From assembly GCA_021836725.1 (NCBI GenBank), contig JAKBHL010000011.1, positions 94,494 through 158,493 on the forward strand: a DNA stretch of 64,000 bases, in the 5' to 3' direction. A model generated the notes under the pieces. It searched no databases. It was given only the letters and a program-made list of their open reading frames with translations, and was not told the origin of the DNA. Shown piece by piece: positions 3,093 through 55,475 of the stretch. The stretch is from a bacterium (GTDB lineage: Bacteria; Patescibacteriota; Minisyncoccia; Phycocordibacterales; Phycocordibacteraceae). Each line of letters starts with the position of its first letter. Position 1 is the stretch's first letter. The position numbers and the translations under genes are program-made.

Positions 3093-3445
3093 GAACCCAT
3101 CTCAATCTCCCAAGATGACATCTTGAAGACGCTATCTCACTTTGAATTAGGAAACTCCATTTGCGACACGCTCCTCGCTTCCTGCGACTCGTCGCTCTGT
3201 CCTTGCGCTCTCGTTTTTGGCTCGCAAAGCGCGTAGTATAGCCAAAAAACACCAAGCTCAGCGCCTTGCGGACGGTCGCAAATGGAGTTTCCTAATTCAA
3301 AGTATCTCAAACCCCCCGCGAGGGATATGCGGCAGAAAGAGGCTTACGGAGCGTGACGACGCGAGTACGAGCCGCTTTTTGAGCACAAAAAGACGGCGTA
3401 CTCCTTTCTGCAGCATACCCGAGCGGGGAAGTTTGAGACGGGTTC
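3093..3445. mobile_element. MITE-like palindromic repeat, copy 1 (composite: core element plus nested ~30-nt inverted repeats at 3138-3168/3280-3310 and small palindrome CAAGATGACATCTTG)
   Basis: Termini GAACCCATCTCAA ... GTTTGAGACGGGTTC; core GGATATGCGGCAGAAAGAGGCTTACGGAGCG...GAGTACGAGCCGCTTTTTGAGCACAAAAAGACGGCGTACTCCTTTCTGCAGCATACC shared with 6 other loci. Confidence 0.75.
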
Positions 3446-4185
3446 TAGCGGTAGTGCGGATTCAGGATAGCTCCGAGGGTAGCGAGAGGGATGCGGAGCG
3501 TCTGGGGGCCAAGGGCATACGGAGCGACCTGGTACGGGTCGAAGAGGATATCGAGATAGCCGTTATCGATGAAGAAATTTTCGAAATTCTTCGCTTCGGG
3601 CGTCGTACCGCGCGTAATGAAGCCCGTGTCGGCATTTTTCCCTATGACGCCCGGGAGCTCTGCACGGCTGATTGCGGAAAGGGTGTCCAGATACGTTGCA
3701 TTCGGCGCGAAGAGATCGGCGAGCGTGAGTTTCGCGCCCGTTGAAGTGTCAAAGGTGAACGTGTGGAAAAACAGATTTCCGTGCGCGCCGAGCGTGTTTT
3801 CATAGACGGTAAAGATGTATGACACCGTGTGCGGCGAAGATGAGACGAGATATTTGATCTGTAGCGTTTGCTTCGCGCCGCCCGGCGGATATGCGGCATT
3901 CCCTCCGGTTTTGAACTGGGAAATCACGCCGCCGATGTAGCTTTGTATGCGTGCGATGGCTTTTCCGTTCGCTCCGCTTGCAAGGGGGGTGGTAGTCGGG
4001 TAATTCGCGGCAATAACATACTCTGGCGACTGCTCCGTATAGGCTCCCGCAGGTAAAAGGACGGGTGTCTGCGTATCTGCCGCGCTCGTCGGCGCTTTCA
4101 CAGGCACCGGCCGCAGAGCGACATAGACGACGATCCCCGCAAGGACAACGCCGATGACCGTAATGCCAAAAATATCCTTTCGCAT
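3445..4185 (-). CDS. Membrane-anchored secreted protein, DUF3298/DUF4163 (RsiV-like) domain; inserted antisense within the ribosomal protein cluster
   Basis: N-terminal TM helix, C-terminal FDPYQVAPYALGPQTLRIP motif resembling DUF3298; reverse strand between rplB and rpsS. Confidence 0.6.
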   Translation of the reverse strand: MRKDIFGITVIGVVLAGIVVYVALRPVPVKAPTSAADTQTPVLLPAGAYTEQSPEYVIAANYPTTTPLASGANGKAIARIQSYIGGVISQFKTGGNAAYPPGGAKQTLQIKYLVSSSPHTVSYIFTVYENTLGAHGNLFFHTFTFDTSTGAKLTLADLFAPNATYLDTLSAISRAELPGVIGKNADTGFITRGTTPEAKNFENFFIDNGYLDILFDPYQVAPYALGPQTLRIPLATLGAILNPHYR

Positions 4186-7782: not shown

Positions 7783-7818
7783 TACTCTGGAGCGACGCTC
7801 CTCGGAGCTTTATTTTTT

Positions 7819-8088
7819 GTGGCAAAAAAATCCCAGCTGGCACGGTACGCCAAAAAGGCGAAACTCGTAAAGAAGTACGCGGTCAAGCGTGCGGCTTTGA
7901 AGCTCTCTGGCGATTTTGAGGGCCTCCAAAAGCTCCCGAGAAACTCTTCGCCGGTGCGCCTTAAGAACCGTTGCGCTATTTCGGGCCGTTCGCGCGGCTA
8001 TATGCGCGTCTTCGGACTCTCGCGCATCCAGTTCCGCGAGCTCGCGCGCGAAGGGAAGATCCCGGGCGTCAAAAAAGCATCATGGTAA
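7819..8088 (+). CDS. rpsN: 30S ribosomal protein S14
   Basis: [26 protein letters not shown] typical S14. Confidence 0.9.
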
Positions 8089-8486
8089 GCGACCGCGTCG
8101 GCGATTTCATCATCCGTCTGCAAAATGCCGCGCGCATCGGGAAGCGCGACGTCGGCGTGCCGTATTCCGGGCATCTTTTCGCTATCGCTAAAAAACTGAA
8201 GGAACTCGGTTTCCTTACCGCGGTCGAAGTGAAAACGAAAGAGGGCGAAGGCGTAAAGAAGCTGTTTACCGCGACGCTCGCTTACGACGAGCGCGGGCTC
8301 CCGAAATTGCGCGGCGTGAAGCGCGTGAGCAAACCGGGCCGCCGGCTCTATGCGGCGCATACATCTGCGCATCGGGTGAAAGGCGGCACCGGCGCGCGCA
8401 TCCTTTCTTCCTCGAGCGGTATCGTCTCCGACAGAGAGGCGCGCAAGAATAAGGTCGGCGGCGAAGAGCTTTTCGAAATCTGGTAA
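8082..8486 (+). CDS. rpsH: 30S ribosomal protein S8
   Basis: [16 protein letters not shown]... typical S8 N-terminus; overlaps rpsN stop. Confidence 0.92.
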
Positions 8487-9393: not shown

Positions 9394-10080
9394 ATGATCG
9401 ACGATACACAGTTGTCACAGGAGCAGGAAACGGAGCAGTCGGCGGACGCCGCAGTGTCCGCGGCGGAGAGCCCGATCGAGACGGATGCCTCGGCTGTCGA
9501 GGACGTATCCGTCGCCGTTTCTGGAGAACCGGCGCCTGCCGCGCTCGCGCGCCCCGAACGAGGCGGCAGGGGGCCGGTGCGCTCGCGCGCTCCGCGCGGC
9601 GGGGCGCGCGCCCGCGCTCCGCGCGAGCGCGGCGAGTTTGAGCAAGTCACCATAGACGCGCGCCGCGTCGCGCGCGTGATGGCGGGCGGCCGCCGTTTCA
9701 GCTTCAGTCTCGTGGTCATCATCGGCGACAAAAAAGGCCGCGTGGGCGTGGGGCTTGGGAAAGGGGTCGATACGGCGCTTGCCATAGACAAAGCGACGCG
9801 CGACGCGAAGAAGCATCTCTTTACGATCGCGCGCACGGCTTCGGGCTCGATCCCGCATCAGGTAGAGGCCAAGTACGCTTCTTCCACGGTCGAGATCATC
9901 CCTTCAAAAGGCCGCGGGATCGTCGCGGGTTCGGCGATGCGCACCGTGCTCGAGCTCGGCGGCGTCACCGACGTCGTGGCGAAAATACACACGCGTTCGA
10001 AAAACAAGCTCACCATCTCGCGCGCGACGGTCGCCGCGCTCAAGAAATTGCGCTTGCCCGAGCGGACAAGCGCACAATAA
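9394..10080 (+). CDS. rpsE: 30S ribosomal protein S5 with ~85-aa acidic/Arg-rich N-terminal extension
   Basis: Core RVARVMAGGRRFSFSLVVIIGDKKGRVGVGLGKG matches S5; rplO starts 12 nt after its stop so no rpmD (L30) gene is present. Confidence 0.92.
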   Translation: MIDDTQLSQEQETEQSADAAVSAAESPIETDASAVEDVSVAVSGEPAPAALARPERGGRGPVRSRAPRGGARARAPRERGEFEQVTIDARRVARVMAGGRRFSFSLVVIIGDKKGRVGVGLGKGVDTALAIDKATRDAKKHLFTIARTASGSIPHQVEAKYASSTVEIIPSKGRGIVAGSAMRTVLELGGVTDVVAKIHTRSKNKLTISRATVAALKKLRLPERTSAQ

Positions 10081-10544: not shown

Positions 10545-11811
10545 TTCTTTCACTCACAAGCTCAAACTCGCGTTCGGCGACTCGGAGATACGGCACCGCA
10601 TCCTGTTCCTTGCGGCGGCTCTCGCGCTTTTCCGTTTGCTTGCCGCAGTGCCGATTCCGGGAGTCAACAAGGCCGCGCTCGCCGCGTTCTTTGCGAACAA
10701 CCAATTTTTCGGCCTCCTGAACATCTTTTCGGGCGGCGGCCTTTCCCAGCTCTCGATAGTCATGCTTGGCGTGGGCCCCTACATCACCGCCTCGATAATC
10801 ATGCAGCTCGGCACCATCATATTCCCGCAGGTGAAACAGGCGTACTTTGAAGAAGGGGAAGCGGGCCGCGCGAAGTTCATCGAATGGAGCCGTCTTCTCA
10901 CCGTTCCCATCGCTATTTTGCAGGCCGTCGGTTTCTTGTTTCTTCTTGAGAGCCAGGGCGTCATAGCGCATTTGGGTTCCGTATCGCTCATCGCGAACAT
11001 AACGCTCGTCGCGGCTGGTTCCATGCTCCTCATGTGGATCGGCGAGCTCGTGACCGAATTCGGCATCGGCAACGGCGTTTCGCTCATCATTCTCGCCGGC
11101 ATCCTTTCGCGCGTGCCCGCCGGCATTTCCGAGACCATTTTTGCTTCTACCGCTGCGAATATCCCCAGCTATCTCGCATTCCTCGTTCTTGCTCTCGCGA
11201 TGATCTACGCGGTCGTCGTCGTCTCCGATGCCGAGCGCTCGATACCGATTGCCTATGCGCGGCAGGTGCGCGGCGCGGCGCTCGCTCAAGGCGCGGCGAC
11301 GTACCTCCCCATCCGTCTCCTGCAGGCCGGCGTGATCCCCATCATCTTCGCTCTCTCGCTCCTGCTTCTGCCGCAGATGGCGCTTTCGATGCTCGGGGCC
11401 GCGCATGTCTCGTTCGCCTCGGGCGCGGCGCTTTGGTATACCGCTTTCCTCTCCAATCCGTGGAAGTACGGCGCCGTGTATTTCACGCTCGTCGTGCTCT
11501 TTACCTACTTCTACACCGCGGTTACTTTCGAGCCGCACCGCGTCGCGGAGGATCTCCAAAAAACCGGAGCGTTCGTCCCCGGAGTGCGCCCCGGCCGCGA
11601 GACCGAGGAATACATCGGAAAGGTGGTCAACCGCGTTACGCTTCCGGGCGCCGCTTTCCTCGGCCTTCTCGCAGTGGCTCCCTCGATCATCCAAGGGCTT
11701 ACCGGCATTACGACGCTGGTGTTGGGAGGCACGGCGCTTCTCATCGCGGTGCAGGTGGCGCTTGATCTGGCGCAAAAGATCGACGCACAAGTTTCGCTTC
11801 GGGAATACTGA
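10537..11811 (+). CDS. secY: Preprotein translocase SecY
   Basis: 10 TM helices, conserved SecY motifs (GIGNGVSLIIL); follows rplO. Confidence 0.93.
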   Translation: MLNSFTHKLKLAFGDSEIRHRILFLAAALALFRLLAAVPIPGVNKAALAAFFANNQFFGLLNIFSGGGLSQLSIVMLGVGPYITASIIMQLGTIIFPQVKQAYFEEGEAGRAKFIEWSRLLTVPIAILQAVGFLFLLESQGVIAHLGSVSLIANITLVAAGSMLLMWIGELVTEFGIGNGVSLIILAGILSRVPAGISETIFASTAANIPSYLAFLVLALAMIYAVVVVSDAERSIPIAYARQVRGAALAQGAATYLPIRLLQAGVIPIIFALSLLLLPQMALSMLGAAHVSFASGAALWYTAFLSNPWKYGAVYFTLVVLFTYFYTAVTFEPHRVAEDLQKTGAFVPGVRPGRETEEYIGKVVNRVTLPGAAFLGLLAVAPSIIQGLTGITTLVLGGTALLIAVQVALDLAQKIDAQVSLREY

Positions 11812-11835
11812 AACTAAAAATGCTAGAGTGGACGG

Positions 11836-12462
11836 ATGGATACGCACTCCAAGGATACTCTCGCGAAAGGACGTGAAGGGGCGCATACCGTTTTCTTCAT
11901 CGGGAAACCGGGTTGTGGCAAGGGCACGCAAGCGAAGCTGCTCTCGCAAGCGACCGGCTGGGCGATCATTTCTGCCGGTCAGCAGTTTCGAGACATAGCC
12001 GCTCTCGATACCAGGGTTGGCCGGAAAATCAAGTCTGAGATAGAGGCCGGATTTCTCGCGCCGCATTGGTTCGCGATGTATCTTTTTCAGAAGGCGCTTT
12101 TTGCGCTTCCGGACGGCGCGAGCGCCATCTTTGACGGGTTCAATCGCAAACTGCCCGAAGCCGAACTCATTCTCGAATCCCTTTCGTGGCTCGAGCGGCC
12201 GTTCCTGATTTTCGATATCCGTATATCCGATGAAGAAGTGCATCGCCGTCTCATGGGCCGCAGAGAAACCGAAGGCCGGCATGACGATGCCGTCGTTAGC
12301 GAACGATTGAAAGAATATTACGCACACACCGAAGCGGCGGTGGAAACGTTTCGAAGAGCGGGCGTGCTCATCGACATACAAGGTGAGCAGCCGCCGGAGC
12401 AGGTTGCAAGCGATATTCGCGCGGCACTCGCTCACGCACCTTCGCAGACACACCCGGCATGA
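11836..12462 (+). CDS. adk: Adenylate kinase (short, no zinc lid)
   Basis: P-loop GKPGCGKGTQ, position after secY. Confidence 0.9.
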   Translation: MDTHSKDTLAKGREGAHTVFFIGKPGCGKGTQAKLLSQATGWAIISAGQQFRDIAALDTRVGRKIKSEIEAGFLAPHWFAMYLFQKALFALPDGASAIFDGFNRKLPEAELILESLSWLERPFLIFDIRISDEEVHRRLMGRRETEGRHDDAVVSERLKEYYAHTEAAVETFRRAGVLIDIQGEQPPEQVASDIRAALAHAPSQTHPA

Positions 12463-13837: not shown

Positions 13838-13991
13838 AACCCATCCCAAAACCCCCGCCTCCCCCGCGAAGGGTATGCGGCAGAAAGAGGCTCTCGGAGC
13901 CCGACGGGGCGAGAGGCGAGCCGCTTTTAGAGCAGAAAAAGACAGCGTACTCCTTTCTGTCGCATACCCGAGGGGGTTTTGGGATGGGTTC
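13838..13991. mobile_element. MITE-like palindromic repeat, copy 2 (canonical; perfect 20-nt TIRs GAACCCATCCCAAAACCCCC / GGGGGTTTTGGGATGGGTTC)
   Basis: Begins immediately after ndk TAG stop (TAGAACCC); core shared with other copies. Confidence 0.85.
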
Positions 13992-15691: not shown

Positions 15692-15916
15692 TCATGCCAC
15701 ATGCTCTGACCTGCCGGCAATGTTGCACGCCAGATGTCCCTGTGCGCATTCATCGCACACAGGAATGATGGTGGCGTGCTTTCTGCTTTTCAGGCCGAAA
15801 GCAAAGAGACAAACGACATGCCGCCCCAGCCACTCGAAATATGTCTCGTTCGGCTTCATGTCCCGGATGGCGTAGTGCATCTCGCCCATTTCACCCTTAC
15901 AGATTGAACAGTTCAT
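15692..15916 (-). CDS. Small zinc-ribbon protein (CxxC...CxxC), hypothetical
   Basis: MNCSICKGE...CDECAQGH; coding call tentative. Confidence 0.4.
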   Translation of the reverse strand: MNCSICKGEMGEMHYAIRDMKPNETYFEWLGRHVVCLFAFGLKSRKHATIIPVCDECAQGHLACNIAGRSEHVA

Positions 15917-18775: not shown

Positions 18776-18925
18776 AACCCATCTCAAAACCCCCGCTCGG
18801 GTATGCGGCAGAAAGGAGTACGCCGTCTTTTTCTGCTCTAAAAGCAGCTCGAACTTACGCCGTCGCGCTCCATAAGCCTCTTTCTGCCGCATACCTCTCG
18901 CGGGGATATAAGGTTTTGAAATGAT
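18775..18925. mobile_element. MITE-like palindromic repeat, copy 3 (opposite orientation of core)
   Basis: Starts at the TAG stop of the upstream gene (TAGAACCCATCTCAAAACCCCC); right end GGTTTTGAAATGAT. Confidence 0.8.
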
Positions 18926-21070: not shown

Positions 21071-21215
21071 AACCATTTCAAAACTCAGCATTTCCCCGAA
21101 GGGTGTGCGACAGAAAGAGGCTTACGGAGCGCGACGGCGCGAGTACGAGCCGCTTTTTGAGCACAAAAAGACGGCGTACTCCTTTCTGCCGCACACCCTT
21201 CGGGGGTCTGTCTTC
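21070..21215. mobile_element. MITE-like palindromic repeat, copy 4
   Basis: GAACCATTTCAAAAC...core identical to copy 1 over ~100 nt. Confidence 0.8.
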
Positions 21216-21815: not shown

Positions 21816-21952
21816 AACCCCCAATCCCCGTCGGATATGCGACAGAAAGGAGTACGCTGTCTTTTCCTTCTGAAAAAGCAGCTCGTACTCGCACCGGCGC
21901 ACTCCGTAAGCCTCTTTCTGCCGCATACCCGAGCGGGGGTTTGGGATGGGTT
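21816..21952. mobile_element. MITE-like palindromic repeat, copy 5
   Basis: TAGAACCCCCAATCCCCGTCGG...GGGGGTTTGGGATGGGTT termini. Confidence 0.8.
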
Positions 21953-23707: not shown

Positions 23708-24181
23708 ATGAAGATGCCCGAAATCGGCTCGCCAGCGCCGGACTTCACGCTCCCCGATCAGGAAGGGAAGGAGCACGCGCTTAGCGAGTACGCAGGAAAA
23801 TGGCTACTCCTGTATTTCTATCCGAAGGACGATACCCCGGGCTGCACCATCGAGGCGTGCGCGATCCGCGACCAGTTCAAGGATTTTAAGGATATCGGCG
23901 CCATCGTACTGGGCGTTTCGACCGACAGCGTCGCGAGCCATAAGAAGTTCGCCGATGCGTATGCGCTCCCTTTCACGCTCCTTTCCGATGCGCATAAGGA
24001 GGTGGTGGGCAGATACGGCGTGTTCGGGGAAAAGAAATTTATGGGGAAAACGTATATGGGCACGAACCGCACCTCATTCCTCATCGACCCTTCGCTCGCT
24101 ATCGCCAAAGTGTATGAGAAGGTGAAACCCGAGACACATGCCGCCGAAGTCATCGCTGACCTCAAGGCGCTCGGCGCATGA
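23708..24181 (+). CDS. bcp: Peroxiredoxin Bcp (AhpC/TSA family)
   Basis: FYPKDDTPGCT peroxidatic Cys motif. Confidence 0.88.
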   Translation: MKMPEIGSPAPDFTLPDQEGKEHALSEYAGKWLLLYFYPKDDTPGCTIEACAIRDQFKDFKDIGAIVLGVSTDSVASHKKFADAYALPFTLLSDAHKEVVGRYGVFGEKKFMGKTYMGTNRTSFLIDPSLAIAKVYEKVKPETHAAEVIADLKALGA

Positions 24182-24849
24182 ACAGATATTCTACGCGCTC
24201 GACGCGGAAAGAGCGCGCCCGGAAAATAGTCGCCTACCTGAAAAAGACATATCCGGAGCCCGCAAGCGAGCTTGCATACCGGACGCCGTTTCAGTGCGTT
24301 GCCGCGGTCATCCTCTCCGCCCAGTGCACCGATAAAGCGGTTAACAAATTGACAGAGACGCTTTTCAAGAAATACAAAACCCCGTTTGATTTCGCGCGCG
24401 CGAAACCCGCCGTCTTTACGCGAGAGATCTCGTCCATTCCGTTTTTCCGCACCAAGGCGAAGGCGATCATCAAAGCGGCGAAAATAATCGATAAAAAATA
24501 CGGCGGCGGCATCCCGCAGACCGCCGCGGAACTTACCGGATTACCGGGGGTCGGCTACAAGACGGCGCACGTCATCCTTGGCGAGCTGTACGGCATCTGG
24601 GAGGGCATCCCGACCGATACGCATGTGAAGCGCTTCGCGAAGCGTTTCGACCTCACCGATGCCGATGACCCGACGAACATCTCGAAGGATCTCGAGGCGC
24701 TCATACCGAAAAAAGACTGGAAGTACGTGAATAACGGCCTCGTCCTCTATGGCCGGTACGTGTGTCCCGCACGCCCGCACGAATGTGCGGTGCACCCTCT
24801 GACGAGGCTCTGGCCGCCCTCAGCGAGACGTTGGCCGAAGGCGACATGA
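24178..24849 (+). CDS. nth: Endonuclease III-like HhH-GPD DNA glycosylase with degenerate [4Fe-4S] loop
   Basis: HhH-GPD (LPGVGYKTAHVILG, catalytic K and D present); C-terminus is C-x6-C-x2-H-x5-W instead of C-x6-C-x2-C-x5-C. Confidence 0.8.
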   Translation: MNRYSTRSTRKERARKIVAYLKKTYPEPASELAYRTPFQCVAAVILSAQCTDKAVNKLTETLFKKYKTPFDFARAKPAVFTREISSIPFFRTKAKAIIKAAKIIDKKYGGGIPQTAAELTGLPGVGYKTAHVILGELYGIWEGIPTDTHVKRFAKRFDLTDADDPTNISKDLEALIPKKDWKYVNNGLVLYGRYVCPARPHECAVHPLTRLWPPSARRWPKAT

Positions 24850-24870
24850 GAAATAAGGTACTATGGCGGC

Positions 24871-25560
24871 ATGGGAAAACGCCCGGTAGCCGCTTTCGAC
24901 ATAGACGGGACGGTATTTCGATCATCCCTGACTCTCGAACTCGTCGAACGCCTCATTGAGAAAGGGATATTCCCGCAGGAATCGCACGCTCTCTACGAGA
25001 GAGAACGCGCGCGCTGGCTCGATCGGGAAGGCGATTATCAAGCGTATGTCGACAAGGTCGTTGAGGTCTTCCAAAAACAGATAAAAGGGGTTCCGTTTGC
25101 GGCAGTGGCGGACGCCGCCGGGGAAATTATCGAGGAAAAGAAGAATCGCGTCTATCGCTACACGCGCGATCTCATCAAAGACCTGAAAGGAAGGGGGTAT
25201 TATCTTCTCGCCATCTCGCATTCGCCGAAATTTATCGCCGATGGATTCGGTTATGAAGCGGGATTCGACAAGGTCTACGGATTTTTCTTCACTTCAGGGC
25301 CGTCCGGAAACTTCACGGGCGACGTCGAGGACGGCGATCTCATCCAAAACAAATCAGCGATACTGCAGAGGGCGGTGCGCAAAGAAGGCCTGACGTTTGA
25401 GGGTTCGATCGGCGTCGGGGACACGGAGAGCGACATCCCACTTCTTGAGTCGGTTGAAACGGCCATCGCATTCAACCCGAACGGCGCGCTTTACGCGCAT
25501 GCAAGAAGGCGCGGTTGGAAAATAGTCGTTGAACGCAAAGATGTCGTCTACGAAATTTAG
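24871..25560 (+). CDS. HAD-superfamily hydrolase, subfamily IB-like
   Basis: Motif I FDIDGTV, motif IV GVGDTESD. Confidence 0.75.
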   Translation: MGKRPVAAFDIDGTVFRSSLTLELVERLIEKGIFPQESHALYERERARWLDREGDYQAYVDKVVEVFQKQIKGVPFAAVADAAGEIIEEKKNRVYRYTRDLIKDLKGRGYYLLAISHSPKFIADGFGYEAGFDKVYGFFFTSGPSGNFTGDVEDGDLIQNKSAILQRAVRKEGLTFEGSIGVGDTESDIPLLESVETAIAFNPNGALYAHARRRGWKIVVERKDVVYEI

Positions 25561-26341
25561 GGCGCTGGTGTGGCGGCAGTATCGCGCGCGCGGAAGGCAT
25601 ACGCTGCCGTGGCGCACAACGCATGATCCGTACCGGATACTCGTCTCCGAAATCATGCTGCAGCAGACGCAGGTGGAACGTGTACTGCCGTTCTATGCCG
25701 CGTTCATAAAAAAGTTCCCGACGGCGCGCGCGCTCGCCGCGGCGCCGCTCTCCGAAATTCTGAAAAGCTGGCAAGGACTCGGCTATAATCGTCGGGCGAA
25801 CATGCTCCTCAAGGCGGCGAAAGAAATCGCGGCGCACGGAATGCCGCATACGGTGCACGAGCTCGAAAAATTGCCGGGTATCGGTCCCTACACCGCCCGC
25901 GCTCTTGCGGCGTTCGCCTACAACCATGACGTCGTCGTGGTGGAAACGAACATCCGCACGGCCGTTCTGCATCATTTCTTTCCGAAAAGGAAAAACGTCT
26001 CCGATGCGGAGATAGAACGCATACTGAGGAAGGTGTCGCCTGCGGGGAGGGCAAGAGAATGGTACAGCGCGCTCATGGATTACGGCGCTCACTTGAAACG
26101 TTCGGGCATATCGCGCAATGCGCAGAGCCGGCACTATGCAAAACAGACGAAATTCGCGGGCTCCGCGCGCGAAGCGCGCGGAGCCATCCTCCGAGAACTT
26201 ACTCGTAGAAGCGCAACGAGCGAGCGTCTCATGGGGCTATTCGGGCCGCTCCGGAGAGCGCAGGCCGCGCGCGCCCTTGCTGCGCTTGCCGCGGAGGGGC
26301 TGATTCGCGCCCGAGGGAACCGATACGCGCTCGCGGACTAA
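25529..26341 (+). CDS. MutY-like HhH-GPD adenine glycosylase homolog lacking Fe-S cluster loop and NUDIX-like C-terminal domain; C-terminal winged-helix-like tail (start uncertain, possibly 25541)
   Basis: LPWR...DPYRILVSEIMLQQTQVERV and LPGIGPYTARAL HhH motifs; zero Cys after the HhH region. Confidence 0.75.
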   Translation: MNAKMSSTKFRALVWRQYRARGRHTLPWRTTHDPYRILVSEIMLQQTQVERVLPFYAAFIKKFPTARALAAAPLSEILKSWQGLGYNRRANMLLKAAKEIAAHGMPHTVHELEKLPGIGPYTARALAAFAYNHDVVVVETNIRTAVLHHFFPKRKNVSDAEIERILRKVSPAGRAREWYSALMDYGAHLKRSGISRNAQSRHYAKQTKFAGSAREARGAILRELTRRSATSERLMGLFGPLRRAQAARALAALAAEGLIRARGNRYALAD

Positions 26342-26523
26342 AACCCATTTCAAACCCCATCTTCTCCTAAGATGTCATCTTAGGAGATTTGACCGGCCTC
26401 CGCGAGAGGTATGCGGCAGAAAGAGGCTTACGGAGCGTGACGACGCGAGTACGAGCCGCTTTTTGAGCACAAAAAGACGGCGTACTCCTTTCTGCCGCAT
26501 ACCCGAGCGGGGGTTTTCTGTCC
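26341..26523. mobile_element. MITE-like palindromic repeat, copy 6 (with nested 40-nt palindrome CTCCTAAGATGTCATCTTAGGAG)
   Basis: AAACCCATTTCAAACCCC left end overlapping the TAA stop of the upstream gene; right end abuts stop of MFS gene on the other strand. Confidence 0.8.
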
Positions 26524-33876: not shown

Positions 33877-34614
33877 CTACTCTCCCGGCGTCTCATTGTA
33901 GCTCAAGACCTCCCAGCCGCGCGTGCTTGAAAAGAGTTTCCATGGATGGAATTCGCACACGGTGATATTTGCATTGTCCGAGGCGTTGAAGAAGGAAAGC
34001 TTCACGTAATCGGCGGCATGGAGGCGCTTGCGGTAAAGAAGGTAGGCGATGAGCATTTTCAGAAAGATGCTGTGCGTCACCACGCAGGTCTCGCGCGCGT
34101 TTTGATTGGAGAGGAACGAAAGCGCCCGCCGCGCCCGTTTTTTCAAGTCTTCAAAATTTTCTTCATCCGAGTAGCGATACGTATCATCGTGGTACGCGCG
34201 GTCCATCTGATCGACGATACGAACGACCCCAGGGTCATCATCGCGTTTGCCGACGATCTCGCTCGGATTCCGGCGTTCCGCCAGAAGCTCAGAGTAACGA
34301 ATTGGCACATTGAGATACTGGTTGATGGTATCCGCAGTTTCTTTTGTGCGTTCGTAAGGGCTTGCGATGATACGGGTGATCGGAAAGCGCACGAGATATC
34401 GCCCGACGCGCTTGCTCTGGAGCCGACCTTTTTCGGAGAGACCGCCTTCCGAGCCTTGGCGGATATGAGCGGCATTCAAGAGTGTTTCGCCGTGACGGAC
34501 GAAATAGAAACGCCGCGGTCGCATAAAAAACAGAATAAGAACGGCAACAAGGACAATCAGCGCCGGCGCAAAGAGCGGTGCAGCTGCAACGAGTAGTATG
34601 TGTGCCGACGGCAT
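33877..34614 (-). CDS. Histidine phosphatase family protein (phosphoglycerate mutase-like), N-terminal TM anchor
   Basis: RHGETLLN catalytic motif. Confidence 0.75.
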   Translation of the reverse strand: MPSAHILLVAAAPLFAPALIVLVAVLILFFMRPRRFYFVRHGETLLNAAHIRQGSEGGLSEKGRLQSKRVGRYLVRFPITRIIASPYERTKETADTINQYLNVPIRYSELLAERRNPSEIVGKRDDDPGVVRIVDQMDRAYHDDTYRYSDEENFEDLKKRARRALSFLSNQNARETCVVTHSIFLKMLIAYLLYRKRLHAADYVKLSFFNASDNANITVCEFHPWKLFSSTRGWEVLSYNETPGE

Positions 34615-34667
34615 GAGGCGTAGTATACCCGATATGTTACACTCGTAAGCATCGTTCCTACTTTCTT

Positions 34668-34841
34668 ATGAGCAGCAAGTCACTCATCTGGGGCGGAATG
34701 TTTGTCGGTTCGACCATCGGCGGCTCATTGCCGTATTTTTGGAACGGCGATTTTTTTTCATACACCATCTGGAGCGCCATCGGCGGTTTCGTCGGCATCT
34801 ATATCGGCTTCAAGCTCGCCAAAATGACCGGCGTACTTTGA
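34668..34841 (+). CDS. Small (57 aa) glycine-zipper membrane protein, hypothetical
   Basis: Read directly: MSSKSLIWGGMFVGSTIGGSLPYFWNGDFFSYTIWSAIGGFVGIYIGFKLAKMTGVL; not in supplied ORF track (<60 aa). Confidence 0.4.
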   Translation: MSSKSLIWGGMFVGSTIGGSLPYFWNGDFFSYTIWSAIGGFVGIYIGFKLAKMTGVL

Positions 34842-34862
34842 GGAAAGAGGAAACTTTAGACC

Positions 34863-35369
34863 TTACCACGTAGAGCAGGCGGGCTCTCCGCTACATATCA
34901 TCCACGCCCACGTCGGACGCACTGGGTCATAAAAGGTTTGGTTCACTGAAGGATAGCTTTCCGGCAGCACATGGTCTAGGAATTTGTAGTTGGTGCCATC
35001 GGAATTGTAAATATACCCGGCACACGATTGCGCCACGAAACTCGGATCAACCGGCAATATCGATATATATGTAGGCGCCAAGTTCGGGATATATCCGGAA
35101 GCACCGGTCAGCGTTCCCGCCAATCCTCCGCAATTACCGACTCCATATCCGTTCCAGCCGCTTGAGACCGGGTACGATCCGTTATGATCGTTTGCGTATA
35201 ACTGCAGTGCCTGCTGGATAGAAAGCATCTCTTCCTTTCTTTGAGCGTCACGGGCTTTTGCGCGTGCAGTATTCAGTGAAACGAGTACCACGGCCGATAA
35301 CAACCCGATAATCGCAATGACGACCAGTAATTCAATAAGAGTAAATCCATTTCGTACCGTCGAATTCAT
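34863..35369 (-). CDS. Type IV pilin-like protein (prepilin N-terminal methylation motif)
   Basis: NGFTLIELLVVIAIIGLLSAVVL class III signal peptide. Confidence 0.85.
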   Translation of the reverse strand: MNSTVRNGFTLIELLVVIAIIGLLSAVVLVSLNTARAKARDAQRKEEMLSIQQALQLYANDHNGSYPVSSGWNGYGVGNCGGLAGTLTGASGYIPNLAPTYISILPVDPSFVAQSCAGYIYNSDGTNYKFLDHVLPESYPSVNQTFYDPVRPTWAWMICSGEPACSTW

Positions 35370-35659
35370 GGAGTCTGAGAATTGAAATGTTCTGCTTGCA
35401 TACGAAGCACATCGGATTGTATCTGACTTGCGGGAGTTGGATTGGATGAACCACTGCCAAAAAATACGACAATGATTATTGCCGACACAATTGCGATAAC
35501 GACAAAACCAAGCATAAAATACTTCGCTTGCTCATCATCTTTCGCTATGTGGTGCCTTACCAACCATGCAGACATTCCTCCGGATGCGTTCGACGTAACG
35601 CCAGAATCTCTTACTGAACCGCCCGTATCCTCCTCATCAAAGACTATCTCCCCACTCAT
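35366..35659 (-). CDS. Small membrane protein, hypothetical (translationally coupled upstream of pilin)
   Basis: Single TM; stop overlaps pilin start. Confidence 0.45.
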   Translation of the reverse strand: MSGEIVFDEEDTGGSVRDSGVTSNASGGMSAWLVRHHIAKDDEQAKYFMLGFVVIAIVSAIIIVVFFGSGSSNPTPASQIQSDVLRMQAEHFNSQTP

Positions 35660-35764
35660 GATTTCAGGATAACAGACCTGGGCAAGACTGCGGCAGTCAG
35701 GGTGGATAGTGACACTATATTATTATTCTGGTAGGGGGAATGCGGATGTACACTATCAAGAACC

Positions 35765-36109
35765 ATGTCTCTGCATATCAAACGGGCATACGAACTTCCG
35801 GCAAAAAGTGACGGCCTGCGGATTCTCGTCGATCGCGTGTGGCCGCGGGGCCTGAGTAAAAAGAAGTTAAAGCTTTATCGGTGGGAGAAAGAACTTGCTC
35901 CCAGCACGGCCTTGCGCAAGTGGTTCGCGCACGATCCGGCGAAGTGGGCCGGATTCAAACGCAGATACAGCACGGAGCTCAAAAGATCGAAATCGCTTAT
36001 CGCGCAGTTGCGTGACCTCGCCCGCTCGCGCACCGTAACGCTCGTGTACGGCGCAAAGGACGAAAAGCACAATCAAGCGGCGGCACTGAAGGAATTCTTG
36101 CGCAGATAG
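35765..36109 (+). CDS. DUF488 (YeaO-like) family protein
   Basis: RILVDRVWPRGLSK...WFAHDP motif typical of DUF488. Confidence 0.75.
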   Translation: MSLHIKRAYELPAKSDGLRILVDRVWPRGLSKKKLKLYRWEKELAPSTALRKWFAHDPAKWAGFKRRYSTELKRSKSLIAQLRDLARSRTVTLVYGAKDEKHNQAAALKEFLRR

Positions 36110-39739: not shown

Positions 39740-41512
39740 ATGAATCTTCTCGGACTGCTTCTTGATAAAGGGCTCCTCTCTTCGACCGACCGAGCGGCAG
39801 TCGAAGCCGCGCTCGCAAAAAAAATCCCTCTGGAGAATGCGCTCGCCGAGCACGGCATCTCTCTCAAAGACGCGCTTGCCGCCGCGGGAGAAGCATATGG
39901 GCTTCCGACGCGCATACTCGGCGATCCTCCCGCAGCCGAAGAAGCGTTCAGCTATATCCCGATAGACTCCGCGCGCCACTACGGATTCGTACCGCTCGAC
40001 GTAGTGGACGGCGCGCTTGAAGTGGGTATCACCGATCCCGACAACATCGAAGCGCTCGACGCGTTGCAGTTCATTTCGGGACAGACCGGCGTTCCCTACA
40101 AGACTTTTCTTATCACGAAACAGGATTTTGACCGCGTATTGAATGCGTACCAAAATCTTTCGGGCGAGATTGGCAGCGCGCTTTCCGAATATGAGACGAC
40201 CACGAAACCCGCTCCTGCTGCCGCGCCCGCCCCGTCCGAATCGGACTCCGCCCTCGACGAAAAGCCGCTGGTCCTCACGGGTGCTCATGAGGTTTTGAAA
40301 GAGGACGCGCCGGTGACAAAAATCGTCTCGACGATATTGCGCTATGCCATTGAGGGACACGCATCCGACATTCACATCGAACCGTCGCCGGGCAAGACGC
40401 GCGTTCGTTTCCGCACCGATGGGGATCTGCACACGTCTTTGGAGCTTCCGGCGAAAATGCACGAAGCGGTGATCGCCCGGGTGAAGATACTCGCGAAGCT
40501 GCGCCTCGACGAGAAAAGAAAGCCGCAGGACGGACGTTTCTCGGCAGTTGTCGAGAAACGCCGTATTGATTTCCGCGTCTCCACCTTTCCGACAGAATTC
40601 GGCGAAAAGGTCGTGATGCGTATTCTCGATCAATCGGCTACCACCGCGTCCCTGGAGTCGATCGGGCTTACCGAGGAGCAGCTCGCCGTAGTCCGCGGCA
40701 TGATGAAAGTCCCGTACGGCATCATCCTCATCGCCGGACCGACCGGTTCGGGAAAATCAACGACGCTTTTCGCGATGCTCTCCGAACTTGATCGCGAGAC
40801 CGCAAACGTCGTCTCGCTCGAAGACCCTGTCGAATACGAGATCCCCGGCGTCGCGCAGAGCCAAGTGCGCCCCGAAATAGGCTATACGTTCGCGAGCGGG
40901 CTCCGTTCCGTCTTGCGCCAGGACCCGGACGTCATCATGGTCGGGGAGATCCGCGATAAAGAGACCGCCGCGCTTGCCGTCCAAGCGGCGCTCACCGGCC
41001 ACCTCGTTTTCTCCACCATCCATACCAATACCGCCGCCGGCGCGATACCGAGGCTCATCGACATGGGCGTCGATCCCTTCCTTGTCGCGCCGACGTTGGT
41101 CGCGGTCATCGGCCAACGCCTTGTGCAAAAACTCTGTACGGGCGCGGGCAAGCCTTTTGCGATTACGGACAGCGTTAAAGAGTTTTTGGATCGGCAATTT
41201 GCGGATCTACCGCAGGAGTACCGCAAAAAATTGCCTCCTTTCAAGGAGTTTTATCACGCCAGCCCGACGGCGGAGTGTCCGAACGGTACGCGCGGGCGCA
41301 TGGCCGTCTTCGAAATACTGCGTATGGACAAGAAGATCGAACAGGTCGTGTTGAAAGCGCCGGTCGAGGAAAATATCTACGCCGCCGCACGCCTGGGCGG
41401 CATGCTCACGATGCGTGAAGACGCCATCGTAAAAGCGCTCGCGGGCGAGATTCCTTTCGAGGAGGTGAATACGCTCGGCGGAGAACTCTTCTCGGCAGGG
41501 GATAGTGCCTGA
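39740..41512 (+). CDS. pilB: Type IV pilus assembly ATPase PilB/GspE family
   Basis: Walker A GPTGSGKST, Asp box, His box, N-terminal GSPII domains; Zn motif reduced to 2 Cys. Confidence 0.92.
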   Translation: MNLLGLLLDKGLLSSTDRAAVEAALAKKIPLENALAEHGISLKDALAAAGEAYGLPTRILGDPPAAEEAFSYIPIDSARHYGFVPLDVVDGALEVGITDPDNIEALDALQFISGQTGVPYKTFLITKQDFDRVLNAYQNLSGEIGSALSEYETTTKPAPAAAPAPSESDSALDEKPLVLTGAHEVLKEDAPVTKIVSTILRYAIEGHASDIHIEPSPGKTRVRFRTDGDLHTSLELPAKMHEAVIARVKILAKLRLDEKRKPQDGRFSAVVEKRRIDFRVSTFPTEFGEKVVMRILDQSATTASLESIGLTEEQLAVVRGMMKVPYGIILIAGPTGSGKSTTLFAMLSELDRETANVVSLEDPVEYEIPGVAQSQVRPEIGYTFASGLRSVLRQDPDVIMVGEIRDKETAALAVQAALTGHLVFSTIHTNTAAGAIPRLIDMGVDPFLVAPTLVAVIGQRLVQKLCTGAGKPFAITDSVKEFLDRQFADLPQEYRKKLPPFKEFYHASPTAECPNGTRGRMAVFEILRMDKKIEQVVLKAPVEENIYAAARLGGMLTMREDAIVKALAGEIPFEEVNTLGGELFSAGDSA

Positions 41513-45335: not shown

Positions 45336-46097
45336 ATGCTTTTTCTCCTCACGATCCTATTTTTTGCGCTCGGGGCTATCGTGGCAAGTTTCGTCGGAGT
45401 ACTTGTCGCGCGCCTCAATACCGGTCAGAGTTTTCTTATCGGGCGTTCTCGTTGCGACACGTGCGGCGCGCCGCTTTCGCCGTTCTCACTCATTCCGATC
45501 ATCTCATACGTCGCGCTTGGCGCCCGCGCGCGCTGCTGCGGCGCACGCCTCTCATTCTTCGCGCCTCTCATGGAATTGCTCTTGGGAGGGCTTTTCGCAC
45601 TCGCGTATCTCAAGATCGGTTTTACCGCCGCGCTGCCGTTTATGCTTTTTTCGCTCTCGACGCTCCTCGCGCTCGTCCTCTACGACCTTGCTCACCAAAT
45701 ACTCCCGTCCGTGCTCCTCGGAGCATTCGTCCTTGCGAGCGCTTGCGCGGGATTTTTACCAGCGGAGGATATGAGCGCATTCGGCGTCTCGCTCATGGTC
45801 GCCGGCGCGTTTGCGCTCTTTCTGGCGCTCATCAACCTCCTCTCGCGCGGGCGGGCGATGGGGCTCGCCGACGCGCCGTTTGTGTTCGGACTCGCGCTTC
45901 TGACGGGCCCCGCCGCGCCCGCCGGTTTCATCTCATCGTTTTGGATCGGTGCGGTTATAGGGATAATCGTGTTGGCACGGAGACCGCGAGGTTCTAGAAT
46001 GGGAGTTGAGGTACCGTTTGCGCCTTTCCTCGCCGCCGGTTTCCTCCTCATGTACTTTACTCAATGGAACCCTCTCATCATCGCGGCTTTACGCTGA
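45336..46097 (+). CDS. pilD: Prepilin peptidase (A24 family) PilD
   Basis: N-terminal CDTC...CC zinc-binding region, 6-8 TM helices, conserved Asp-containing loops. Confidence 0.85.
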   Translation: MLFLLTILFFALGAIVASFVGVLVARLNTGQSFLIGRSRCDTCGAPLSPFSLIPIISYVALGARARCCGARLSFFAPLMELLLGGLFALAYLKIGFTAALPFMLFSLSTLLALVLYDLAHQILPSVLLGAFVLASACAGFLPAEDMSAFGVSLMVAGAFALFLALINLLSRGRAMGLADAPFVFGLALLTGPAAPAGFISSFWIGAVIGIIVLARRPRGSRMGVEVPFAPFLAAGFLLMYFTQWNPLIIAALR

Positions 46098-47244: not shown

Positions 47245-48005
47245 AAACATTCCACGAGCCTGAAACTCACCCCGACTCCCCGCTCGGGTATGCGACAGAA
47301 AGGAGTACGCCGTCTTTTTGTGCTCAAAAAGCGGCTCGTACTCGCCCCGTCGGGCTCCGTAAGCCTCTTTCTGCCGCATACCTCTCGCGGGGATGCGAGA
47401 GGTTAGAAGCGGGTCTCGGAGAGCGAAGCCAGCTTCGCGGCTTCACGCTCATCGAAGCCATGATCGCCGTAAGCATCCTCGCGCTTGCGGTCGCGGGGCC
47501 TCTGTTCGGCGCGGATCGCGCTATCGTCGCCGCGGAGGGCGCGCGCTACCAGCTCACCGCTTCCTATCTCGCGCAAGAAGGCGTCGAGTACGTGCGCGCG
47601 ATGCGCGATGATGAGTATCTCCTCGCATATCAGGCGGGCGGCACAAACACCTCAAGCGCCGCCTGGACCGACTTCCTTACCGGAACGGACAGCGCGGCCA
47701 TCACCCAATGCCGTTCAATGACCTGCACGCTCGATCCGGCGCTTCCGATGGGCACCGGAAGCGGATTCTCGCTCAACCCCTGTACCGGCAGCGCCTGCAC
47801 GCCGCTCTATCTCGCAAACAACGGTACTACGAACTACTACACCGAGCAGAGCGGCAATGGCGCGATACTACAGCCGTTCACGCGCACGATACAAGCGTTT
47901 ACGGTCTCTTCCACCGAGGAGCGCATCGTCTCGATCGTGTCGTGGAATTTCCATGGTATCCCGTACACAGTTACGGTGATAGACCACCTTACGTCATGGC
48001 AATGA
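47241..48005 (+). CDS. Pseudopilin with prepilin motif; only in-frame start (47241) lies upstream of the MITE, giving a ~65-aa leader read through the element
   Basis: ...LRGFTLIEAMIAVSILALAV prepilin motif at aa ~60; no in-frame ATG/GTG/TTG between MITE and motif. Confidence 0.55.
   Translation: MKTFHEPETHPDSPLGYATERSTPSFCAQKAARTRPVGLRKPLSAAYLSRGCERLEAGLGERSQLRGFTLIEAMIAVSILALAVAGPLFGADRAIVAAEGARYQLTASYLAQEGVEYVRAMRDDEYLLAYQAGGTNTSSAAWTDFLTGTDSAAITQCRSMTCTLDPALPMGTGSGFSLNPCTGSACTPLYLANNGTTNYYTEQSGNGAILQPFTRTIQAFTVSSTEERIVSIVSWNFHGIPYTVTVIDHLTSWQ
47262..47418. mobile_element. MITE-like palindromic repeat, copy 7 (inside the 5' end of the next pseudopilin ORF)
   Basis: CCCCGCTCGGGTATGCGACAGAAAGGAGTACGCC...CTTTCTGCCGCATACCTCTCGCGGGG core. 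Confidence 0.8.
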
Positions 48006-48633: not shown

Positions 48634-50703
<2,070 letters not shown>

Positions 50704-53098: not shown

Positions 53099-53506
53099 GC
53101 GGGGTAGAGGAGAGGTACCTCGGGAGGCTCATGTGAAAACGTGACCCTATCCGGTAACGGGTAGTGGAAAAACTCTCTAAATTGCTGGAATACCGTTAGA
53201 GCTTCTTGTGCTACAGCGCGATCCGAAAGGATGAGCGCGAACGCCTAAAAAACGAGAAGATTCGGCAATCAGCAGCCAAGCCTAGTTTTACTTCGGGGGT
53301 TCCCCCATTCCGATGGGGAAGGCGAACGGCGGAGTGCGAAAGTGAGGACAAAGTCCGAGCGGGAGCAACTCCGGTAAGTGAGACTGGGAAGGTTCAGAGA
53401 CTATAATGGGAGAGTCCTTATGGGATTGTGGTATAGTCCATTCCTGTTGGAAACAGCAGGTGTAAAAGAACCTCCAGACGCCGGTTCGATTCCGGCCCCC
53501 GCAACA
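53099..53506 (+). ncRNA. ssrA: Candidate tmRNA (ssrA), ~400 nt
   Basis: 3' tRNA-like end GCCGG-TTCGATT-CCGGC-CCCCGC-A with 5' GCGGGGT able to form the acceptor stem; promoter upstream and hairpin terminator downstream; tag ORF not confidently identified. Confidence 0.5.
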
Positions 53507-53840: not shown

Positions 53841-54425
53841 ATGACCGACGAACAATTGTTGTCGCGAGCGAGATCTCTGCAAGAAGACGCGCGACGGATT
53901 TTGCAAGAATTAAATTTGTTCTCGATTATCAGAACGATCTCGGAACCGGAAATCGTGGGGAGCGTGAAAAGCGGGCTCATGATCATGCCTGACATCGATA
54001 TCCATGCGTGGATGGAAGAGCCGAATCTCGGGGCTGTCTCGAATATGCTTTCCACACTTGCGAAGATGTCGACCATTCAGATGGTACATTTCAACAACTA
54101 CCGCGAGCTACGGAGGGATTTCCGAAAGGATCGCATCAATTTTCCGCACGCATACTATGTCGGACTGCGTACCATACAGCCCTCGGGCGAATGGAAGATT
54201 GATATGTGGTTTGGAAAGCGCGGGGAAGTGGGCGAGTATGATGCAACCGAGCTTGAAACGATGACCGATGAACAGCGTCTCGGCATTCTGCGACTCAAGG
54301 AGACTTGGAGAGACGGTAAGGGGTATCGGGATGGTGTTCTCAGCACCGATTTCTATAAAGCGGTCATGCGACACGATGTAAAAGACGAGGGAGGATTTGT
54401 AGAATATCTGAAGACGAAAGAATAA
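53841..54425 (+). CDS. Nucleotidyltransferase-fold protein (GrpB/UPF0157-like; GS-x11-DxD motif), in low-GC islet
   Basis: IVGSVKSGLMIMPDIDIH minimal NTase motif; local GC ~50% vs ~63% genome. Confidence 0.6.
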   Translation: MTDEQLLSRARSLQEDARRILQELNLFSIIRTISEPEIVGSVKSGLMIMPDIDIHAWMEEPNLGAVSNMLSTLAKMSTIQMVHFNNYRELRRDFRKDRINFPHAYYVGLRTIQPSGEWKIDMWFGKRGEVGEYDATELETMTDEQRLGILRLKETWRDGKGYRDGVLSTDFYKAVMRHDVKDEGGFVEYLKTKE

Positions 54426-54428
54426 CGT

Positions 54429-54929
54429 ATGGAAATTAAATCTACACTGACTAATCGTTCAGGCCAGGTATTGGATGTTATCTATCGGGACATAGAATCG
54501 TTTGAAGAACTTGGGAATCGCACTGTGCATGGTGTTCACGCGTTCTGTTTCGCCGGTGACGAGCTGATCATCGTCTATTCGGAAGCAAAAGGGTATTGGA
54601 CGCCGCCGGGCGGCGGGGTGGAGCCGGGGGAGACGGCTGAAGAAGCGATTGTGCGCGAAGTCTTCGAGGAAACGAACATGCGGGTACTCAAACAGCGTGT
54701 CATTGGATACCAGGAAATCTCCGAGCCGCACCGGCTTACGGTGCAAGTGCGTTCGGTTTGCATCGTTGAACCGATTGGGCCGTTTATCGCCGATGCCGAT
54801 TCCAGCGATGGCGAAGGAGTGACCGAAATCAAGCCCATTGATCCAAAAGATATCAAAAAATATTTCGACTGGGGTGAAATTGGTGCTCATATACTTGAAC
54901 GATCCTTATCTATTAAAAGACAGCTCTGA
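54429..54929 (+). CDS. NUDIX hydrolase
   Basis: Nudix box GGGVEPGETAEEAIVREVFEETN. Confidence 0.85.
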   Translation: MEIKSTLTNRSGQVLDVIYRDIESFEELGNRTVHGVHAFCFAGDELIIVYSEAKGYWTPPGGGVEPGETAEEAIVREVFEETNMRVLKQRVIGYQEISEPHRLTVQVRSVCIVEPIGPFIADADSSDGEGVTEIKPIDPKDIKKYFDWGEIGAHILERSLSIKRQL

Positions 54930-54940
54930 ACATAGTCACT

Positions 54941-55288
54941 ATGCAAGAGGTCGTACAGGAGGCCAGGAACGATTTTGAGAATGGTCTGATTGATCAAGGC
55001 CTACTCATTGAGTTGTATAGAGGATATAAAGATGTTGGTGATACGGTACGGTTTGTAACCAAAGCAAGAAATATTTTCCCGAACGGGAATTGTGGACTCG
55101 CGTCTCTGTATCTAAAAAGAAAATTAGGAGGCGAAATTGTTCATGGGAAATATGAGAAACACGACCATACATTCCTGCTCAGCAAAGATACTGTTATAGA
55201 TATCACTGCAGATCAGTTCGGAGGCCCAAAAGTGTATGTCGGTCCTCTTCGGTTACCATGGTCATTTGAAGAAAACAGACGAGCTTGA
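54941..55288 (+). CDS. Hypothetical protein (low GC ~43%)
   Basis: ORF with codon usage distinct from surroundings; no recognised motif. Confidence 0.45.
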   Translation: MQEVVQEARNDFENGLIDQGLLIELYRGYKDVGDTVRFVTKARNIFPNGNCGLASLYLKRKLGGEIVHGKYEKHDHTFLLSKDTVIDITADQFGGPKVYVGPLRLPWSFEENRRA

Positions 55289-55373
55289 TAAGCACAGGAA
55301 TTGAACTTGAAAAAATCACTGGATGCACCGATTCCCGACCCGCTGTCCTCCGCTTGCGACACGGCAAAAAATC

Positions 55374-55403: not shown

Positions 55404-55475
55404 GCAATCGAGTCGTCTGGGAATTAGACGCACTCGGTACATTCGTCGTTCAACGAAATACCGTAGGAGTTCTTT

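Follow-up and report, generated by a model that had tools for sequence, protein, structure and literature searches.

In the window analysed here, a stretch of 64,000 nucleotides of contig JAKBHL010000011.1 (assembly GCA_021836725.1, positions 94,494 to 158,493) from a Kaiserbacteria/Paceibacteria-type bacterium of the Patescibacteriota, genes for a Bcp-type peroxiredoxin, an endonuclease III (Nth)-like glycosylase, a HAD hydrolase, and a MutY-like glycosylase of the MutYX type follow each other on the same strand. This cluster, in which the peroxiredoxin and the hydrolase are optional members, is conserved in related genomes and appears to be directed against oxidative damage. Neither glycosylase has the canonical four-cysteine (Cys4) motif of a [4Fe-4S] cluster, and in the Nth-like enzyme the altered site is likely to hold a single Zn2+ ion; the probability of this reading is put at about 0.6. 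A more specific proposal, that the Nth-like protein is an active, Fe-S-free endonuclease III in which a new Cys2His2 site (C-x4-H-x-C-x2-H) binds one zinc ion that holds the DNA-binding loop, is tentative and is given somewhat less than even odds. The features of the locus are as follows.

23708-24181, forward strand: Bcp/AhpC-type peroxiredoxin (Pfam AhpC-TSA, 9e-42).
24178-24849, forward strand: Nth-like glycosylase of 223 amino acids, predicted to be bifunctional, without the Cys4 cluster motif (Pfam HhH-GPD, 1e-19).
24559-24618, forward strand: catalytic Lys128 (GVGYKTA) and Asp147 (TDTHV) of the Nth-like protein, aligned to the Lys and Asp of 1ORN.
24763-24834, forward strand: remodelled cluster region of the Nth-like protein, C196-PAR-P-H201-E-C203-AV-H206-PLTRL-W212-PPSARR-W219, from the codons and 120 of 120 homologues.
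24871-25560, forward strand: HAD-IB family hydrolase (Pfam HAD, 1e-17; TIGR01490, 95 bits).
25541-26341, forward strand: MutYX-type, cluster-free predicted adenine glycosylase (PDB 8UUC, 4.7e-56); the open reading frame (ORF) opens with TTG at 25529.
26144-26338, forward strand: Gln206 and Arg214 (equivalent to MutYX Gln201 and Arg209) and the C-terminal X domain, residues 213-270, from the phmmer match to 8UUC and the structural match.

The Nth-like protein belongs to the endonuclease III family. It matches endonuclease III of G. stearothermophilus (1ORN/1P59) with a phmmer E-value of 5e-44, and its AlphaFold2 model, at a predicted local distance difference test (pLDDT) score of 84, has the endonuclease III fold, with a Foldseek template-modelling (TM) score of about 0.8 to 1P59 and 2ABK. 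The curated model TIGR01083 (nth) is narrowly missed, at 203 bits against a cut-off of 211.7, which is consistent with a divergent C-terminus. Lys128 and Asp147 are invariant in the alignment of Nth sequences (A1) and their motifs are present in 117 of 120 homologues. Judged by these residues, the protein is probably still a Lys/Asp bifunctional endonuclease III, with predicted glycosylase and apurinic/apyrimidinic lyase activity on oxidised pyrimidines.

The divergence lies in the cluster loop. The C-terminus reads YVC196PARPH201EC203AVH206PLTRLW212PPSARRW219PKAT, which is C-x4-H-x-C-x2-H-x5-W. In the alignment to 1ORN/1P59, C196 and C203 correspond to Cys1 and Cys2, H206 stands in the Cys3 position, and W212 in the Cys4 position; in place of the canonical ligand set of endonuclease III, C-x6-C-x2-C-x5-C, the protein has C-x6-C-x2-H-x5-W. 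This ending had been recognized in a preliminary description made from the sequence, and both the codons and the alignment bear it out. That description went on to state that two single-base changes would restore both cysteines, when three are required, two at His206 (CAC to TGC or TGT) and one at Trp212 (TGG). It also regarded the site as degenerate, overlooking His201 at Cys1+5, with which four Cys/His ligands are conserved; the presence of this histidine changes the interpretation from loss to ligand replacement or remodelling. The length of the cluster loop, Arg199, and Cys1 are retained, as are Arg152 and His149. In MutY, the Cys1 ligand is connected via an Arg and an Asn to the catalytic Asp (PMC12631127). 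The endonuclease III counterpart of the Asn in this path is a His. A frameshift concealing a canonical cysteine motif was considered and rejected, as C-x2-C-x5-C occurs in none of the other reading frames of 24760-24850.

Conservation of the altered site was assessed in the 120 closest homologues, which are 75-98% identical and come from many independent assemblies. All 120 have C, H, C, and H at the four positions and all have W219, while the old Cys4 position is W in 105 and Y in 15. In alignment A1 (mean column identity 72%), C196, R199, H201, C203, H206, and W219 are invariant. In addition, a scan of one genome per species identified 258 genomes with an Nth relative, of which the best 80 loci were kept and examined; all 80 are from Patescibacteria. 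A pattern search of these species-representative loci found CHCHW in 62 and CHCHY in 11 (73 of 80 in total), and nothing matched in six. Sequencing errors at the His and Trp codons, which the preliminary description had named as a possible cause, are not the reason for these residues, since the same residues recur in independent assemblies. The wider possibility, that assembly errors or decaying pseudogenes are being read here, is vanishingly improbable: the ORFs are intact, the catalytic residues and the synteny are conserved, and the 120 database homologues and 73 species genomes agree.

More distant relatives contain natural variants of the site. Among representatives of 50%-identity clusters of 1.84 billion proteins there were 4,828 matches to Nth at E<=1e-10, and the best 150 were compared. 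All four cysteines are present in 109 of these, where Cys1+5 is Pro in 104, Ala in 3, and otherwise Thr or Arg; none has His there. Histidine at Cys1+5 is found in 12 of the 150, every one of which lacks a canonical cysteine. The patterns in these 12 are CHCH followed by W or Y (six), a fragment with CHCP-W, CHCC-Y, CHCC-L, CHHC (two), and a divergent form in P0333. The Cys/His positions 0, +5, +7, and +10 are kept in CHCH, CHCC, and CHHC, with Cys and His interchangeable at +7 and +10; P0333, read by eye, is C-x4-H-x4-C-x2-C with positions 0, +5, +10, and +13 and Phe in the old Cys4 position. Over the variants as a whole, the residue in that position is W, Y, L or F, so that in most of them an aromatic or aliphatic side chain stands for Cys4; it is R/S in proteins that stop at this point, and in P0276 the Trp is one residue earlier. 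Since His appears at Cys1+5 only where a canonical cysteine has been lost, four ligands persist, and the site looks remodelled and not simply decayed. Interchange of Cys and His at fixed positions is typical of zinc sites. In a neighbour-joining tree of 146 representatives, built with the cluster region excluded, the non-canonical forms are concentrated near the query and interleaved with canonical ones, the tree being too crude to order the events.

The second glycosylase is a clear member of the MutYX family. Its ORF (25529-26341) encodes 270 amino acids counted from the TTG, and from there shares 32 nt (25529-25560) with the end of the HAD gene. The alignment comprises 121 sequences, the window protein and 120 homologues, and 77 of these begin at Met5; the likely start is therefore the ATG at 25541. 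The two closest database clusters are called from Met43 (228 amino acids) and thereby lose the catalytic Glu41, so these are probably mis-called. The preliminary description had reported no cysteine after the HhH motif; there is none in the whole protein, and the Cys-x6-Cys-x2-Cys-x5-Cys motif is absent. Sixty-seven of the 120 homologues are likewise without cysteine, and the others have one to three, scattered. The protein scores 173.7 against the TIGR01084 cut-off of 286.5 and so falls outside canonical MutY, and the best match to a solved structure is 8UUC (E = 4.7e-56, compared with 1e-33 for canonical MutY). The AlphaFold2 model (pLDDT 87) superposes on 8UUC in Foldseek with a TM-score of 0.82 over 273 columns at 41% identity, the C-terminal domain included. 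As had been proposed, the NUDIX-like domain is missing and the tail resembles a winged helix: Pfam gives no NUDIX match, and the model has three helices (213-226, 231-235, and 240-255) followed by a beta-hairpin (strands 259-262 and 265-268).

The structure 8UUC is the MutYX of Eggerthella sp., a clusterless adenine glycosylase in which a 67-residue X domain stands for the NUDIX-like domain, the catalytic Asp is replaced by Glu134, and 8-oxoguanine (8-oxoG) is read by Gln201 and Arg209 (Trasvina-Arenas et al., NAR 2025; PMC12631127). The corresponding residues are conserved here. Catalytic Glu41 (VSEIMLQQTQV), equivalent to Glu33 of 8UUC, does not vary among the sequences covering that position, and its partner Glu139 (ETN) is near-invariant in the 121 sequences; Gln206 is present in 118 and Arg214 in all 121, with the same 8-residue spacing as in 8UUC. 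By sequence and model, the enzyme is predicted to be an adenine glycosylase in which Glu41 and Glu139 would excise adenine, Gln206 and Arg214 would read 8-oxoG, the small winged-helix-like X domain would replace the NUDIX-like domain, and extra helices would take the place of the cluster loop. The preliminary description had allowed that these proteins might belong to known cluster-free subfamilies with a different C-terminal architecture, and for the MutY-like protein this is what was found. The lineage, however, is one that the MutYX paper does not list: the 46 clusterless MutYs named there are from Lactobacillales, Actinobacteria, delta-proteobacteria, spirochaetes, Chlorobi, and Entamoeba, with none from Patescibacteria (PMC12631127).

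The arrangement of the genes fits a common purpose. The stop codon of bcp and the start codon of the Nth gene overlap (ATGA), so the peroxiredoxin probably opens the operon, as the first gene of an oxidative-damage operon. The preliminary description placed the two glycosylase genes next to each other; here the HAD-IB gene (24871-25560) intervenes, with all three on the same strand, though direct adjacency is seen in related genomes. Across the 80 loci the genes are ordered VKOR, a 388-amino-acid membrane protein, (Bcp), Nth, (HAD), MutYX, MFS, and RNase J. MutYX is on the same strand and within 6 kb of Nth in 62 loci, being adjacent or overlapping in 31, separated by the HAD gene in 19, and farther off in 12. 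Bcp is directly upstream of Nth in 18 of the 80, and the HAD gene, found anywhere in the locus in 32, is a variable member of the cluster. The pairing of a peroxiredoxin with Nth and MutYX fits an oxidative-damage module, and a functional link between them may be supposed. The rest of the window carries the S10-spc ribosomal operon, SecY, Adk, Map, GroES/EL, RNase J, LigA, GatCA, and a type IV pilus cluster. For the Nth-like protein, the MutY-like protein, and LigA alike, every close homologue is from Patescibacteria, which public records name Kaiserbacteria, Paceibacterota or Minisyncoccota.

Directly after the MutYX stop codon, between the convergent MutYX and MFS genes, is one copy of a palindromic repeat of about 125 nt. 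Seven copies are present in the window, where none is expected by chance: 3314-3444, 13937-13960 (core only), 18788-18907, 21093-21198, 21819-21938, 26400-26515, and 47295-47318 (core only). The repeat belongs to no Rfam family and folds as a single long hairpin (-65.3 kcal/mol, z = -8.0); it could be an element similar to miniature inverted-repeat transposable elements or repetitive extragenic palindromes, or a structured terminator-type repeat. A further feature of the window is a DUF3298-domain gene (3445-4185, reverse strand), which lies between L2 and S19 on the opposite strand and so interrupts the S10 ribosomal protein operon.

Two other proteins of the window from families with canonical Cys4 sites, the NAD+-dependent DNA ligase LigA (48706-50703) and the type IV pilus ATPase PilB (39740-41512), were compared with reference structures at these positions.

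49909-50001, forward strand: Zn-finger region of LigA, FPTH-S-ALC...AAHRC...GSF, with two of four cysteines (alignment to E. coli LigA, 2OWO).
41135-41278, forward strand: tetracysteine region of PilB with C466, A469, T510, and C513 (alignment to EpsE, 1P9R/4KSS).

Both had been described as retaining two of four cysteines, and the alignments agree. Pfam identifies the adenylation (6e-80), OB (3e-33), HhH (9e-19), and BRCT (1e-9) domains of LigA and gives no match to PF03119, the Cys4 Zn-finger. In the alignment with E. coli LigA, S, C, C, and F occupy the four positions, with Cys2 and Cys3 kept, and the pattern FPxxS-x-LC...AAHRC...GSF is in all 56 homologues inspected from the 120 closest. 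The His before Cys3 (AAHRC) was considered as a replacement ligand and dismissed: T. filiformis has it too, in a LigA with the normal Cys4 finger, so it does not count as evidence of replacement. The His farther upstream (PTH) varies among relatives. PilB (Pfam T2SSE, 7e-117; MshEN, 6e-15) keeps Cys1 and Cys4 and has Ala and Thr at positions 2 and 3. This state is conserved in its closest relatives: of 20 with at least 55% identity, 16 keep just Cys1 and Cys4, and four are without one or both of these as well. Among all 80 PilB relatives retrieved, 50 have CCCC, these being the more distant ones, and all four cysteines have been lost in a few other lineages.

For the Nth-like protein, it is proposed that the cubane site would be replaced by a compact four-ligand site, Cys196-x4-His201-x-Cys203-x2-His206, that Trp212 in the old Cys4 position and Trp219 would fill the former cluster cavity, and that a single redox-inert metal ion, most likely Zn2+, would staple the DNA-binding loop. 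Avoidance of an oxidant-labile and costly cofactor, or general cysteine economy in a streamlined genome, are possible selective reasons. Some observations weigh against a zinc site. AlphaFold2 confidence over residues 191-220 is just 52-77 pLDDT. Ligand-less relatives (A/S, Y/K, x, D, Y/L) exist that keep the scaffold PAR-x-Y...DPL...Y-P-x-AA-x-R-F and the catalytic residues, showing that the fold is possible without any metal. A His can ligate a [4Fe-4S] cluster in the same fold, as in the E. coli MutY variant C199H (cited in PMC12631127). This last point would suit an Fe-S cluster with mixed Cys2His2 ligation, either a [4Fe-4S] cluster with His201 in place of Cys4 or a [2Fe-2S] cluster of the Rieske or mitoNEET kind. 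Four ligand-capable residues are strictly conserved in the loop, the canonical x6 and x2 spacings are kept, and natural single Cys-to-His variants (CPHCC, CKHCC, CACHC, and CVCHC) are found among the representatives. A mixed-ligand cluster is nevertheless unlikely, given that E. coli MutY tolerates replacement at the second cysteine only (PMC12631127), whereas Cys3 and Cys4 are replaced here; that a filled cavity is suggested by Trp or Tyr at the Cys4 position together with another invariant Trp; that the free Cys/His swaps at +7 and +10 and the compact variant with 0, +5, +10, and +13 fit a mononuclear site better; and that the partner enzyme in the same operon is entirely cluster-free. No SUF or ISC genes were found in the window and its flanks, the genomes themselves not having been searched. 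A further reading is that no metal is bound, with the Cys and His residues serving hydrogen bonding, packing or a Cys196-Cys203 disulfide and the aromatic residues filling the cavity, as once modelled for clusterless MutY. The ligand-less relatives with their retained scaffold and catalytic residues would fit, MutYX demonstrates that this fold family can dispense with metal, and W212 and W219 are conserved. Yet exactly four Cys/His positions are strictly invariant over 45-98% identity, only Cys and His interchange at them, which is hard to explain by packing alone, and a disulfide is unlikely in the cytoplasm, so that a metal-free site is quite improbable and a single zinc ion is preferred.

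A broader explanation would make both glycosylases, LigA, and PilB symptoms of a genome-wide purge of cysteine, with systematic loss of structural metal ligands, as the preliminary description had suggested. Four of the five canonical Cys4 sites that could be tested in the window are reduced (Nth, MutY, LigA, and PilB), each in a lineage-conserved manner. In 56 Pfam-supported genes of the window (14,652 residues), cysteine makes up 0.40% of residues and 29 genes have none, when roughly 1% is typical of bacteria. Likewise, S14 (c. 7790-8090, forward strand) is the long, cysteine-free form, and Adk (11836-12462, forward strand) has a short lid that lacks the Cys4 zinc site. The fifth site, however, in the prepilin peptidase PilD (45336-46097, forward strand), is not reduced, with four cysteines in the N-terminal domain, a CxxC and an adjacent CC (C67 and C68), and the redox cysteines of Bcp and VKOR are intact. 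A 74-amino-acid ORF (15692-15916, reverse strand; no Pfam match) has CxxC at both ends in a zinc-ribbon-like manner and is the sole CxxC..CxxC candidate in the window. In a contig (L161) of a 97.8%-identical strain, an island encodes a DUF805 protein (9468-10058) and a trypsin-like protease (10662-12344), each with an intact N-terminal CxxC-x11-14-CxxC, so Cys4 ribbons are still used in the lineage. Furthermore, ordinary bacteria commonly have a cysteine-free S14 and a lid-less Adk, the window is about 6-8% of the genome and rich in ribosomal proteins, which are cysteine-poor in general, and the Nth site has gained a His ligand, which is not plain loss. A purge is therefore doubtful and the claim of systematic loss is supported only in part: the cysteines are truly missing, their absence is under selection, and for Nth, MutY, LigA, and PilB the trend is real and lineage-wide, without extending to a purge.

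An ApbE flavin transferase gene is followed in the window by a gene for a cysteine-free protein of 502 amino acids (together 60079-62327, forward strand), in which an RnfD/NqrB-like membrane domain is fused to an FNR-type NAD-binding domain; it lacks a ferredoxin-type Fe-S domain such as NqrF-like reductases have. Collinearity with L161 ends at about 53796, at a tRNA(CAU) gene (53099-53503, forward strand) that is split by a 336-nt group I intron, so the split gene adjoins a strain-variable island. The intron (53133-53468) lies after the anticodon CAT, between exons at 53099-53132 and 53469-53503. Rfam RF00028 matches over 53121-53460 at 60.2 bits, against a gathering score of 50. ARAGORN missed the gene in the raw window and calls the spliced sequence tRNA-Met(cat). 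Two patches, 34001-36000 and 54001-56000, have a GC content of 0.51 compared with about 0.58 elsewhere, and the second of these is within the strain-variable region, where hypothetical genes and one for a NUDIX protein (54429-54929) are located.

Why endonuclease III and MutY carry a [4Fe-4S] cluster is a textbook puzzle, since the chemistry does not require it and it is nonetheless conserved almost universally. It has been proposed to act in DNA binding, to control the catalytic Asp allosterically, and to serve redox signalling over long range from one repair enzyme to another. In 2025, MutYX provided the first structural example of a MutY without the cluster, and we know of no characterised counterpart for endonuclease III. 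A search of the literature for cluster-free or zinc endonuclease III, or for Fe-S loss in Patescibacteria, found only a one-sentence remark that endonuclease III orthologues with altered ligands exist (PMC12631127). As far as was searched, the Nth variant is therefore undescribed beyond that remark, while the MutY-like half of the pair belongs to a cluster-free subfamily that is already known. A large and conserved Nth family with a Cys2His2 and Trp site, linked in operons to MutYX and present in at least 258 species genomes, would offer a natural test of which functions of the cluster are dispensable, and its variants would be graded natural intermediates for biochemistry. If the zinc site is real, the whole base excision by Nth and MutYX in this lineage would run without a redox cofactor, and the relatives would record a stepwise route from Cys4 to Cys3His, to Cys2His2, and to no ligands. 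The family would also be a concrete case in which to ask if cofactors that are costly or sensitive to oxidants are discarded by streamlined, host-dependent bacteria. For annotation, it matters that these Nth and MutYX proteins do not reach the curated cut-offs for nth and mutY, and that public records name them inconsistently.

Compared with endonuclease III (2ABK, 1ORN/1P59), the Nth-like protein has the same fold, HhH motif, catalytic Lys and Asp, Arg and His bridge residues, loop length, loop Arg, and Cys1 and Cys2. It differs in having His for Cys3, Trp or Tyr for Cys4, and His for the Pro at Cys1+5, and its group has an extra conserved C-terminal tail, PPAAxRWPKAK. It shares with E. coli MutY C199H (Messick et al. 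2002, as cited in PMC12631127) a His in a cluster ligand position; that variant, as described there, is one engineered change at Cys2 in which the cluster is kept, whereas Nth has two natural changes, at Cys3 and Cys4, and a new His.

The MutY-like protein resembles the Eggerthella MutYX (8UUC) in the absence of the Cys4 motif, the Glu and Glu catalytic pair with Glu for Asp, the Gln and Arg contacts to 8-oxoG at identical spacing, and the X domain of about 60 residues made of helices and a beta-hairpin. The Tyr/Ala swap is exclusive to the Actinobacteria MutYX (PMC12631127). The Actinobacteria-type Tyr132 swap is absent here, the position being Val137, and the active-site Tyr121 (GPYTA) is on helix H8, as in canonical MutY and the MutYX of Entamoeba and Chlorobi. 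The window protein also differs from 8UUC in being just 41% identical to it and in its operon linkage to a non-canonical Nth.

There are precedents for the loss of such sites in other proteins. GspE/PilT-family ATPases without the tetracysteine motif are known, for example XpsE and PilT, as is an entomopoxvirus NAD+ ligase without the Zn finger. Among Zn-ribbon ribosomal proteins, cysteine-free (C-) and cysteine-containing (C+) forms were reportedly distinguished by Makarova et al. 2001. In all of these, structural Cys4 metal sites have recurrently been lost in particular lineages with function kept. Those precedents, however, are protein by protein, whereas here several changes are found together in one 64-kb stretch of one lineage.

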